In this document: positions 10,314 to 34,561 of the stretch, piece by piece | Position numbering within the stretch: the stretch's first letter is position 1 | Layout of the letters: each line of letters opens with the position of its first letter | Source of the DNA: a virus | Taxonomy: Duplodnaviria; Heunggongvirae; Uroviricota; Caudoviricetes | Virus record (IMG/VR): IMGVR_UViG_2711768009_000006 | Direction: 5' to 3' (one strand) | DNA: 45,689 bases | Made by a program: the position numbers and the translations under genes | The notes under the pieces: model-generated | The model's input: the letters and a program-made list of their open reading frames with translations, nothing else | Database searches by the model: none | Told to the model about the DNA's origin: nothing

Positions 10314-10337
10314 NNNNNNNNNNNNNNNNNNNNNNNN
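10314..10337. other. Assembly gap or masked bases (24 N)
   Basis: Run of 24 n characters immediately left of the telO palindrome. Confidence 0.99.
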
Positions 10338-10361
10338 CCCATTATACGCGCGTATAATGGG
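10338..10361. other. telO-type telomere resolution palindrome (protelomerase target)
   Basis: Perfect 24-bp palindrome CCCATTATACGCGCGTATAATGGG, which contains the recalled N15 telO core CCATTATACGCGCGTATAATGG; about 180 bp upstream of telN. The expected left flanking arm is replaced by the N run. Confidence 0.75.
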
Positions 10362-28022: not shown

Positions 28023-28042
28023 AAATCTCTTTGTTTCTCGTG

Positions 28043-28058
28043 TGCGATCGTGGTCGCT
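28043..28058. promoter_or_regulatory. Degenerate centromere-like palindrome TGCGATCGTGGTCGCT
   Basis: Two mismatches relative to the other sites; 12 bp upstream of direct repeat A. Confidence 0.3.
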
Positions 28059-28069
28059 CGCTAAATTCC

Positions 28070-28280
28070 GCGCTGCATCGTCGCCGTATTCCCGCATTAA
28101 CTATGACCGTAGCCCGACGGGGAACTCCTCTGCGCGAGTGTGCGGAAATAATCAAAAACGATGCACACCGGGTTTTTACCGCGCTAATGATTCGCGGGTT
28201 TGTCCCTCATGCTCGCTAGTCCTGTGCGAGGGTGGAAGAAACAGGGCATGTATTCAGGAGCGTGCGACCGTGGTCGCACG
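28070..28280 (+). repeat. 211-bp direct repeat, copy A (left flank of the two-gene cassette)
   Basis: Aligns without indels to 29854-30064 with about 10 mismatches; ends in the centromere-like palindrome. Confidence 0.9.
28263..28278. promoter_or_regulatory. SopB-type centromere-like palindrome TGCGACCGTGGTCGCA (end of repeat A)
   Basis: 25 bp upstream of the cassette gene start codon. Confidence 0.6.
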
Positions 28281-28302
28281 GTATCTTTGTCAGGAGGTTT
28301 TG

Positions 28303-29163
28303 ATGAAAGAGTTGCAAAAAATTAATTCAATAATGGAACGATTAATTGCTCTTGAGCTTAAGCTGGCCGATTGCGGAAAACTGTGTGCTGAAAAGCAAAA
28401 TGAGCTTTACCGGGAATTTGTTACAATCGTAAGTGAGCTGATGCCAATTGTTAATAACTGCCTAATGACATCCATATTTTTTAATGTCGATGCTACTACA
28501 TCCAGAAAATTTACTGTGAAAATTCAAGAAAGAGTTTCTGGTAGTGTGACAAGAGAGATGGCTGAACAGTTTGTGGCAATGAGTAATAAAACAAAAAGAA
28601 AAAAGGCATTGCTTGTAACAGTAAATCAGCTTTCAGGGCGCGTTGACTTTCAGGTCAGACAGGGTGGGCGTGTACTGGTAAACGATGCGTTCGTTGGACG
28701 TTGCTTTAGTCCTTACTCGATGAAATATGATGTTGATGCAGATGATCAGGATATCAGCATTTCCTGGAAATCTGAGACAGCAGGGATTGTATTAACAGCA
28801 GAGTTGTTGAGTGATGATAAAAATGATGGCCAGCATCATTTGGACGAAAAAAATCATATTTCTGAAATTTGTATGAAGCCACGTAGTGGAATGACTTTAT
28901 TGTCGCGAACTCTTGCTGCTGGCTTTTCTGCAACGGAGAAACGTGTGCTTCTGGTAGTGCCTGAAGATGCAGATATTCGTCCACTGAATGGCTGTGATGT
29001 TATTAGTGCAAAAACATTGCATACCCGCATCATGCCTGTACCGGATGTGGTCATCATTGATGATATTGAGAAATGCAAGTCTGTTTCCTCAACTGCCACA
29101 ATCAAACGAATTTTACGTTGTAGCACGTCGGCTGTTGTATTCCAGAAGCAGTTACATAACTAA
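28303..29163 (+). CDS. Hypothetical cytoplasmic protein (286 aa), cassette gene 1
   Basis: ORF from the ATG with strong SD AGGAGG (MKELQKINSIMERLIALELK...); AT-rich codon usage unlike the lambda-like genes; no recognised motif. Confidence 0.6.
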   Translation: MKELQKINSIMERLIALELKLADCGKLCAEKQNELYREFVTIVSELMPIVNNCLMTSIFFNVDATTSRKFTVKIQERVSGSVTREMAEQFVAMSNKTKRKKALLVTVNQLSGRVDFQVRQGGRVLVNDAFVGRCFSPYSMKYDVDADDQDISISWKSETAGIVLTAELLSDDKNDGQHHLDEKNHISEICMKPRSGMTLLSRTLAAGFSATEKRVLLVVPEDADIRPLNGCDVISAKTLHTRIMPVPDVVIIDDIEKCKSVSSTATIKRILRCSTSAVVFQKQLHN

Positions 29164-29287
29164 CCAGTTTTGTTTTGCAGAACATCCTCAACTAAAAGCT
29201 TATAGAAAGAGAGCCAGAGATATTTTTTTTCTGTCTCTCGTAGTTGTTTATTTTTTCGAACAGGCTTACAACTTACAGGATATATAC

Positions 29288-29737
29288 ATGCAAGAAGAAG
29301 CAAAGAAAATTCTTGTTGATTTATTGAACAATGCCAGCGATGGAATTGATTCCGCCATTGCATTCAGTCAGGCTCAGATTCCGGATGTTGTTCATCAGTT
29401 GCTGGTATGGAATATAGTTGATAGCCTGATTAAAACATTAATAGCCATTTCAACAATCCCGCTGGTTATTTGGTTTATGAAGAAACAGTGCAAAAAAGTT
29501 GAAATTGGTAAGTTCGATAATGACGGACGCTCATGTGATAATGGACAGCCTAAATACAAACCGACTATGATTTGGGAAAGTGACGGTAGGTTAAGTGCTT
29601 TTGTCTTACCATTAGTAGCAGTTTTTATTCTATGGTTAAGTTTTATTATTTCTATAGTAGCCAATATGACATGGTTAAAAATCTGGCTGGCACCTAAGTT
29701 ATATCTAATCGAATACGCAGCATCACTAATTAAATAG
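29288..29737 (+). CDS. Hypothetical two-helix membrane protein (149 aa), cassette gene 2
   Basis: Internal ATG of track ORF 28988..29737; hydrophobic helices LIKTLIAISTIPLVIWFM and AFVLPLVAVFILWLSFIISIVANMTW; start choice uncertain. Confidence 0.5.
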   Translation: MQEEAKKILVDLLNNASDGIDSAIAFSQAQIPDVVHQLLVWNIVDSLIKTLIAISTIPLVIWFMKKQCKKVEIGKFDNDGRSCDNGQPKYKPTMIWESDGRLSAFVLPLVAVFILWLSFIISIVANMTWLKIWLAPKLYLIEYAASLIK

Positions 29738-29853
29738 CCCATTACAAAAGCCATTCGCTACTGAGTGGCTTTGATAATGGCTTATACCCTACACGGGATA
29801 ACTTAACTAATATCCCTTTTAACGGATAAAGGTATTCAAGCCTGACACATTAT

Positions 29854-30064
29854 GCGCTGCATCGTCGCCGTATTTCCGCATTAACTATGACCGTAGCCTG
29901 ACGGGGAACTCCTCTGCGCGAGTGTGTGGAAATAATCAAAAACGATGCATACCGGGTTTTTACAGCGCTAATGATTCGCGGGTTTGTCCCCCATGCTCGC
30001 CAGCTCTGTGCGGGGGTGGAAGAAACAGGGCATGTATTCAGGAGCGTGCGACCGTGGTCGCACG
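29854..30064 (+). repeat. 211-bp direct repeat, copy B (right flank of the two-gene cassette)
   Basis: About 95 percent identical to 28070-28280; ends in the centromere-like palindrome. Confidence 0.9.
30047..30062. promoter_or_regulatory. SopB-type centromere-like palindrome TGCGACCGTGGTCGCA (end of repeat B)
   Basis: Identical to the site at 28263-28278. Confidence 0.6.
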
Positions 30065-30119
30065 ACGCTGGTCTGTCAGACATTGAATTCATTGCGAATA
30101 AACCAGAACGCCTGCGGGT

Positions 30120-30334
30120 CCTTTCCGGCGATCCGGCAGGCTACGGGGCGGAAGGCGCGCGGGTTTTCGCTATTTATGAAAATTTTCCGGTTTAAGGCGT
30201 TTCCGTTCTTCTTCTCCGTAACTTCATGTTTTTATTTAAAACACCCCCTGAAAAGAAAGGAAACGACAGATGCTGAAAACGGGCTTTTTGGCCTTTGTCA
30301 TTTCCTTTCTCTGTTTTTGTCCGTGGAATGAACA
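30120..30334. other. cos packaging site (cosN plus lambda-like cosB) upstream of Nu1
   Basis: CGCGGGTTTTCGCTATTTATGAAAATTTTCCGGTTTAAGGCGTTTCCGTTCTTCTTC... matches the recalled lambda left end; putative cosN 12-mer GGGCGGAAGGCG at 30146-30157 (lambda is GGGCGGCGACCT). Confidence 0.75.
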
Positions 30335-30854
30335 ATGGAAGTCAACAAAAAGCAGCTGGCTGATATTTTCGGTGCGAGTATCCGTACCATTCAGAACTGG
30401 CAGGAGCAGGGAATGCCCGTTCTGCGAGGCGGTGGCAAGGGTAATGAGGTGCTTTATGATTCTGCCGCCGTCATAAAATGGTATGCCGAAAGGGATGCTG
30501 AAATTGAGAACGAAAAGCTGCGCCGGGAGGTTGAAGAACTGCGGCTGGCCAGCGAGGCAGATCTTCACCCCGGAACACTTGAATTTGAGCGCCATCGCCT
30601 GACTCGTGCTCAGGCGACGGCGCAGGAACTGAAAAATGCCAAAGAATCGGCTGAAGTGGTGGAAACCGCATTCTGTACTTTCGTGCTGTCGCGTATAGCA
30701 AGGGAAATATCCAGTATTCTCGACGGTATTCCTCTGTCGGTGCAGCGACGTTTTCCTGAGCTGGATAACCGGCATATTGATTTCCTGAAACGGGATATCA
30801 TCAAAGCCATGAACAAAGCAGCCGCGCTGGATGAACTGATACCGGGGTTGCTGA

Positions 30855-30880
<26 letters not shown>
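30335..30880 (+). CDS. Nu1: Terminase small subunit Nu1
   Basis: 181-aa ORF MEVNKKQLADIFGASIRTIQNWQEQGMPVLRGGGKGNEVLYDSAAVIKWYAERD..., near-identical to recalled lambda gpNu1. Confidence 0.95.

Positions 30881-34561
<3,681 letters not shown>

Follow-up and report, generated by a model that had tools for sequence, protein, structure and literature searches.

A predicted lambda-type cos site with a variant right cohesive-end half in an N15-like linear phage-plasmid

Natural variation at lambda-type cosN

Lambda-like phages commonly differ from lambda at base pairs 7-12 of the cohesive end, N15 at positions 9 and 12 and Gifsy-1 at positions 8, 9 and 11 (PMC4669245), and the end GGGCGGCGCGCT of LLS/mEp213 is a further natural allele (PMC12315714). 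The lambda type as defined by the Feiss laboratory asks for "significant identity" to the lambda ends, full identity not being required (PMC4669245). A dedicated survey of natural cosN variation has been published (Vahanian et al., 2017, Virology 509:140); according to the passage of PMC9303873 that cites it, the most conserved positions of the site are the first 4 bp together with the 2 bp that flank each side. Mutations in the right half have minimal phenotypes whereas symmetric changes in the left half are severe (Feiss et al., 2015, PMC4669245): G2C carries an approximately 10-fold cost in yield and C11G none, and lambda TerL gives equal yields on the lambda and N15 cosN alleles (PMC4669245). 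Chromosomes with mismatched ends still cyclize, and their progeny hold both alleles (PMC4669245). Terminase nicks at a measured distance from an R site (Higgins and Becker, 1994, as cited in the corresponding passage of PMC9026076), R3 occupies cos bp 50-65 (PMC9026076), and cosQ is required in lambda to terminate packaging (PMC9026076, PMC4669245).

This article describes a cos region in a 45,689-nt stretch of viral DNA (the window) in which the left half of cosN, GGGCGG, is that of lambda and the right half reads AAGGCG where lambda has CGACCT. The published tolerance data (PMC4669245) concern single or few changes, and the replacement of five bases out of six seen here is larger. A first-pass annotation of this DNA had singled out the difference; the novelty attached to it has to be lowered, since natural variation at bp 7-12 was already documented (PMC4669245). 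The allele itself is apparently undescribed but unsurprising, and falls in the half of the site known to tolerate change. A literature search with the 12-mer GGGCGGAAGGCG and its complement, which did not extend to the survey of Vahanian et al. (2017), returned unrelated papers only. No phage record beginning at the 12-mer was found, nor, in the literature and records searched, physical end mapping for any phage with AAGGCG.

The cos region and the replicon that carries it

The 12-mer occurs once in the window (Table 1). Its counterpart in lambda is GGGCGGCGACCT, with which it shares 7 of 12 bases, the differing positions being cos bp 7, 8, 9, 10 and 12. The lambda reference (NC_001416) starts with GGGCGGCGACCTCGCGGGTTTTCGCTATTTATGAAAATTTTCCGG and ends with ...GGGTCCTTTCCGGTGATCCGACAGGTTACG, so that the lambda cosN given in the first-pass annotation was correct, as was its placing of all the differences in the right half. 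With slashes for the predicted nicks, the window reads CG/GGGCGG....../CG; the CG flanks (-2/-1 and 13/14) and the left half are the same as in lambda and N15, and the conserved positions named above (first 4 bp, 2-bp flanks) are all intact.

To the right of the nick, the window aligns with lambda free of indels from cos bp 13 to about 130; R3 and R2 match lambda exactly and R1 carries one substitution, which bears out the lambda-like sequence reported for this side. The complex cosB order R3 - I1 - inverted R2 - R1 is present at the lambda distance from cosN, and R2 also forms part of an R2/R1 inverted repeat detected in the window. To the left, repeat DNA ("repeat B") had been described in place of a lambda right end. 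This description did not hold, as the repeat ends at 30064 and the 33 bp immediately left of the nick, cosQ included, are lambda-like (Table 1). From base -34 outward identity to lambda is at chance level (23/87), and most lambdoid records start aligning at window 30113-30115. These alignments place the mosaic boundary, beyond which the DNA is unrelated, at about 30112, immediately to the left of cosQ. The cosQ heptamer was unchanged throughout one cos alignment and in nearly all IMG/VR loci.

The 12-mer is not a chance match, because it sits between two strong lambda blocks at lambda spacing and recurs in many independent records. Judged from its sequence, the region is a genuine lambda-type cos, correctly located, with a real cohesive-end allele, and there is good reason to predict that it functions as such. 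Two single-base changes were seen within its cosB. The first, 30227 A->C in the I1 region, is shared with plasmid pAH01-1 (cosB haplotype, bp 13-122) and is not found in the phage records YDC107_1 and PhiR46_1; the second, 30300 G->A in R1 (CGTTTCC to CATTTCC), is likewise missing from YDC107_1 and PhiR46_1. R1 is reportedly the least critical R site.

Table 1. Features of the cos region and adjoining terminase genes (window coordinates; nick positions are predicted).
Feature	Position	Strand	Basis or remark
Lambda-like right-end segment (cosQ through cosN left flank)	30113..30145	+	29/33 identical to the lambda right end
cosQ heptamer GGGTCCT	30116..30122	+	-30..-24 from the top-strand nick, same offset as lambda 48473-48479
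cosN, 12-bp cohesive end plus CG on each side	30144..30159	+	Alignment to the annotated ends of lambda and N15; unchanged R3 spacing
Predicted nicks	top 30145/30146, bottom 30157/30158		From lambda/N15 alignment and R3 spacing
Predicted 12-nt 5' cohesive end GGGCGGAAGGCG	30146..30157	+	Predicted right-end overhang 5'-CGCCTTCCGCCC
cosB R3 (TerS/Nu1 site; core CGTTTCCGTTCTTCTT)	30195..30213	+	Identical to lambda, same distance from cosN
I1 (putative IHF bending site between R3 and R2)	30214..30249	+	Alignment to lambda; few substitutions
cosB R2 (GAAAAGAAAGGAAACG on the + strand; inverted relative to R3 and R1)	30250..30265	-	Identical to lambda
cosB R1 TCATTTCCTTTCTCTG	30298..30313	+	Lambda and close relatives TCGTTTCC...; one G->A at 30300
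Nu1 (TerS, 181 aa)	30335..30880	+	Starts at cos bp 190; 170/181 aa identical to lambda Nu1 (93.9%)
gpA (TerL, 641 aa, GTG start; nuclease/ATPase nicking cosN)	30855..32780	+	635/641 aa identical to lambda gpA (99.1%)

The nick positions in Table 1 are those expected from alignment and spacing, and the changed half of the site bears on one of them. The context of the bottom-strand nick, CCT/CGCG in lambda, is GCG/CGCG in the window, and the right junction GGCG/CGCGGG is a CG repeat within which this nick could in principle slip. Of the five symmetric pairs of lambda cosN the variant is without two (3/10 and 6/7), and it has one new pair (4/9). These features, together with the low intrinsic sequence specificity of the TerL endonuclease (PMC9026076), would speak for a functional cos cut at shifted positions, for instance 2 bp away inside the GCGCGCG run, in which case the overhang would not be GGGCGGAAGGCG. 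The R3-cosN spacing is nevertheless unchanged, and terminase is described in the cited part of PMC9026076 as measuring its cut from the R site; the positions that PMC9303873, in the passage referred to above, names as most conserved (2 bp flanking each nick, first 4 bp) are intact; and G at bp 12 is found in N15 as well, whose 12-nt end is annotated. Displaced nicks are therefore considered improbable. The nearest-neighbour dG37 of the end duplex is -17.8 kcal/mol for the window and -18.2 kcal/mol for lambda, with a G+C content of 10/12 in each, so that the stability of the duplex is practically unaltered.

Over most of its length the window matches plasmid pAH01-1 of Escherichia coli AH01 at 98.9-99.9% identity, and it comprises nearly the whole replicon. 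The annotation of pAH01-1 lists a protelomerase, genes for SopA/ParB partition, a replication protein of the CyRepA1 type and a complete lambda-like set of head and tail genes. The closest phage record is PhiR46_1 (96.3% identity over 98% of a 20-kb query), which gives ECOR13 as host and has telL and telR annotated at its ends. The tel palindrome CCCATTATACGCGCGTATAATGGG at 10338-10361 of the window equals the annotated telL end of PhiR46_1, and the early arm is about 76% identical to N15. On the strength of these sequence matches the window is an N15-like linear phage-plasmid with a packaging, head and tail module of the lambda type, and not with the simple cos of N15.

Two further features of the replicon were recorded. 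A 24-N run at 10314-10337 directly abuts the tel palindrome, and pAH01-1 has about 98 bp where the window has these 24 N, which indicates that part of telRL was masked or left unassembled. A 216-nt direct repeat (28065-28280 and 29849-30064, 94-95% identical) has its second copy ending 81 bp before the nick; the copies bracket a 1.57-kb segment that lies shortly before cos, and ORFs are located there at about 28042-29163 and 28988-29737. Both copies terminate in the palindrome GTGCGACCGTGGTCGCAC, and copies are also present in PhiR46_1, YDC107_1 and the IMG/VR contig L011.

Recurrence and exchange of the AAGGCG block

The same 12-mer is found in the phage records PhiR46_1 and YDC107_1, the latter classified in Ravinvirus. 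A first scan of IMG/VR, in which the six right-half bases were left free between fixed lambda flanks, returned 124 sites: 114 with CGACCT, 9 with AAGGCG, one with CGACCG and none with any other form. Intermediates between the two main alleles in the lambda-cosB context were hardly seen in a later tally either, in which 134 loci gave only one CGACCG and one CAGACG besides CGACCT and AAGGCG.

Among 5,426 complete E. coli genomes, 74 replicon records matched a 73-bp query at 95% identity or more, a threshold that requires the variant allele, since a site with the lambda allele, having five mismatches, cannot exceed 93.2%. At least 15 of the 74, among the matches listed, are plasmid records of 36-75 kb. 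Lambda-type cos places on plasmids number 34 in the whole E. coli collection, and AAGGCG is present in at least 15 of these 34, against roughly 1% of the chromosomal places. In PLSDB about 24 more records reached 95% identity, mostly of 42-48 kb and from E. coli, E. albertii, E. fergusonii and Shigella. AAGGCG is, overall, a minority allele (roughly 1-2%) that is enriched on phage-plasmids; despite this enrichment most of its carriers are chromosomal prophages. A scan of 596 Gb of genome contigs with the pattern GGGTCCTN{19,20}ACGGGGCGG proved too unspecific for that volume of sequence: nearly all of the 120 matches listed were chance matches in GC-rich genomes, and the three lambda-like sites among them carried lambda, Gifsy-1-type and N15-type alleles.

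Both alleles occur together in one strain. E. coli Z1323HEC0355 carries AAGGCG on a 45.9-kb plasmid (NZ_CP148365.1, 21308-21380, 100% match) and a chromosomal prophage (NZ_CP148363.1, 2706965-2707037) whose 93.2% match corresponds, by identity, to the lambda allele. This strain is a natural setting for cross-packaging between cos alleles.

The loci with AAGGCG that were compared number 18. The difference between the alleles behaves as a block. PhiR46_1 and contig L011, 99.1-99.4% identical over 3.4 kb, were compared over 562 bp around the site and are identical across 150 bp on the left and 400 bp on the right; the only five bases that differ are bp 7, 8, 9, 10 and 12. By simple combinatorics, five random differences in 562 positions would fall within a 6-bp span with p ~6e-9, which argues that the PhiR46_1/L011 difference arose in one event and not in five. 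The chromosome of strain RM14723 has the flanks of the window, including about 20 bp upstream of cosQ, with the lambda allele. AAGGCG itself occurs in at least 8 distinct flank haplotypes and beside three types of cosB, namely lambda-type, 21-like and a third type. Within the lambda-type and 21-like groups, the right or the left flank is matched exactly by a locus with the lambda allele. L069, of the third type, has as its nearest lambda-allele partner a site with 13 mismatches in 110 bp to the right and 1 in 33 bp to the left.

These comparisons bear on the two possibilities that the first-pass annotation had offered, a different cohesive end or a mosaic junction running through cosN. In the latter case, a junction between a lambda-like left arm and unrelated DNA would have left a hybrid scar at cosN, and the cos might be defective or cut differently. 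The loss of lambda similarity upstream of about 30112 and the location of all differences on one side of the centre of the 12-mer would agree with such a junction. Lambda homology, however, resumes in the 33 bp left of the nick, both window-like flanks are found with the lambda allele in RM14723, the flanks of PhiR46_1 and L011 are exactly identical, and the same 6-bp block recurs across the flank haplotypes and cosB types, in the 74 replicons of E. coli counted above and in the genome record of a named phage. The block-like pattern thus rules out a simple mosaic junction through cosN, now very unlikely and rejected on the flank comparisons, and indicates exchange of the cohesive-end sequence itself. 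The other possibility, a different cohesive end, is supported as far as sequence alone can do so, by a cos that is otherwise fully lambda-type and by the recurrence of the allele in PhiR46_1 and dozens of replicons.

Taken together, the recurrence, the three cosB types, the lack of any gpA or Nu1 residue that tracks the allele (see below) and the PhiR46_1/L011 pair identify AAGGCG, at the level of sequence comparison, as a discrete cohesive-end allele and not a mosaic junction, an assembly error or the mark of a retargeted nuclease. This 6-bp block has probably passed from one phage background to another, most plausibly by way of a chromosome whose packaging started at one cos allele and finished at the other. 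Annealing of the two ends of such a chromosome would give a heteroduplex, from which replication would yield both alleles, a course of events found for lambda/N15 ends. That precedent covers two mismatches, compared with five here, and we infer the route on this analogy.

Terminase, packaging and relation to described systems

Nu1 and A adjoin cos and both read away from it, and their description as lambda-like stands (Table 1). Proteins encoded downstream of cos sites of both alleles were aligned (49 gpA, 98 Nu1), and no column in either alignment splits the AAGGCG from the CGACCT loci. Across the alleles gpA is 99.2-99.8% identical and Nu1 up to 100%; the Nu1 of the window is 100% identical to Nu1 proteins that adjoin lambda-allele cos sites. 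That a variant cosN should be matched by a co-evolved terminase with altered nuclease specificity, forming a new packaging specificity group, has in its favour only the prior plausibility that site and enzyme co-vary. It is contradicted by the alignments, in which nothing tracks the allele, by the identities across alleles, by the near-identity of the window gpA to that of lambda and by published tests of lambda against N15, which revealed no cosN specificity (PMC4669245); this explanation is highly improbable and was rejected on the two alignments. A sequencing or assembly artefact, to which cos junctions can give rise when virion DNA is sequenced, has a negligible probability and was rejected on recurrence, as the identical block is embedded in chromosomes as well as plasmids (plasmid records, E. 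coli replicons) in many complete assemblies, produced independently by different laboratories and from different hosts, and also in IMG/VR contigs.

The preferred reading, to which we attach a high probability, is that 30113-30334 constitutes the working lambda-type cos of an N15-like linear phage-plasmid, with an essentially unchanged terminase serving both alleles and the block being exchanged between phage backgrounds. By homology with lambda, Nu1 dimers would bind R3, R2 and R1 and IHF would bend the DNA at I1, by which gpA would be placed on cosN to nick both strands at the predicted positions. Virion DNA would then have 12-nt 5' overhangs, GGGCGGAAGGCG on the left and its complement CGCCTTCCGCCC on the right, and packaging would run rightward into Nu1 and A and stop at the next cosQ-cosN. 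After injection the ends would anneal, and protelomerase would process the circle at telRL to give the linear plasmid prophage. According to published genetics the right half of cosN matters very little for nicking, because gpA is there positioned by the Nu1-R3 contact and not by local sequence, and for this reason an essentially unchanged lambda terminase could serve both alleles. Function of this cos in vivo is, like the nick positions, inferred from these likenesses. The record of PhiR46_1, a complete phage genome with host ECOR13, suggests that this phage forms infective particles.

For annotators and for users of cosmids and packaging systems, these data mean that a lambda-type terminase need not imply GGGCGGCGACCT ends. 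To represent the virion form, genomes of this lineage are best opened at 30146. AAGGCG ends would probably anneal poorly with those of the lambda allele, from which they differ by five mismatches. The locus may be regarded as a natural experiment backing the work of the Feiss laboratory, in that a terminase 99% identical to that of lambda appears to serve a cosN with five of its six right-half bases replaced, and it fits a bottom-strand cut placed by the Nu1-R3 anchor and not by local sequence. A swapping of whole cohesive-end alleles would fit the block-like pattern, and the current understanding is not overturned.

A more far-reaching proposal, put forward tentatively and held to be rather unlikely as a whole, is that the right half is an exchangeable cohesive-end cassette moved by terminase and that AAGGCG marks an incompatibility group favoured in N15-like phage-plasmids. 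The 6-bp cassette would move freely between lambda-like genomes, whether otherwise identical or unrelated, when packaging proceeds from one cos allele to another and the heteroduplex at the ends is then resolved by replication. If this were true, AAGGCG could keep phage-plasmids from annealing or being co-processed with co-resident prophages of the lambda allele.

The right half is far more diverse than the handful of alleles in the literature consulted for comparison would suggest. CAGCGT and CGTCCG were seen in enterobacterial genomes, among the matches listed, and the IMG/VR loci in which bp 7 is not C (L252-L364) have GGGCGGGAGCGT (83 sites), GAGCGG (24), GAGCAT (7), AAGCGT (1) and AGACCG (1). 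GAGCGT is likewise among the alleles seen in IMG/VR, and these alleles as well as CAGCGT occur in other cosB contexts. Most of L252-L364 have a cosB unrelated to that of lambda. Some IMG/VR contigs contain two or three cosQ-cosN sites in the same orientation and about 2.4-2.5 kb apart: L267 (11142, 13581), L288 (1799, 4238, - strand), L282 (7072, 9578) and L256 (67, 8202, 10738). In these contigs one site is followed by a right flank of its own kind (CGCGGAAAAAGGCTAGTTTTTG...), the other by a cosB that is phage-like and resembles that of 21, and in L267, L282 and L288 both sites carry GAGCGG. Such paired sites could represent a cos-bearing satellite or module adjoining a phage cos.

Compared with lambda, the cos of the window has the same cosQ and spacing, CG flanks, GGGCGG half, R3-I1-R2-R1 arrangement and start of Nu1 about 190 bp from the end; it differs in the right half AAGGCG, in one R1 substitution and in the unrelated DNA left of cosQ. 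Lambda is an integrating phage, whereas the replicon of the window is an N15-like linear plasmid prophage.

With N15 the window shares a lifestyle module (protelomerase, tel palindrome, SopAB-type partition, RepA-type replicon and the early arm, at the nucleotide identity given above). In cos the two have in common GGGCGG as the left half of a 12-nt 5' end, and G at bp 12. The N15 end, GGGCGGCGTCCG (annotated, experimental), nonetheless differs from that of the window at 4 of 12 positions. The cosB of N15 is simple, with a single R3, whereas that of the window is of the complex lambda type (PMC9026076); beyond about bp 45 the left end of N15 ceases to resemble the window, and the window does not have a simple cos of the N15 type. 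N15 TerL is about 65% identical to lambda TerL (PMC4669245), whereas the terminase of the window is that of lambda.

As in Gifsy-1 and mEp213/LLS, variation is confined to bp 7-12, and the left half and nick flanks are conserved (PMC4669245, PMC12315714 and the cited passage of PMC9303873). AAGGCG is also found beside a phage 21-like cosB with CATGTCGG-type R sequences (L007, L046, L100, L345), although the cosB of the window itself is lambda-type and not of the phage 21 type. Among the alleles compared AAGGCG has the most differences from lambda (five). It is at least four steps from each named allele (N15, Gifsy-1 type, mEp213/LLS) and, by hand count against the IMG/VR hexamers, three steps from GAGCGG and AAGCGT and two from the single CAGACG. 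Unlike the other right-half alleles, the AAGGCG of the window stands beside a cosB and a TerL that are essentially identical to those of lambda.
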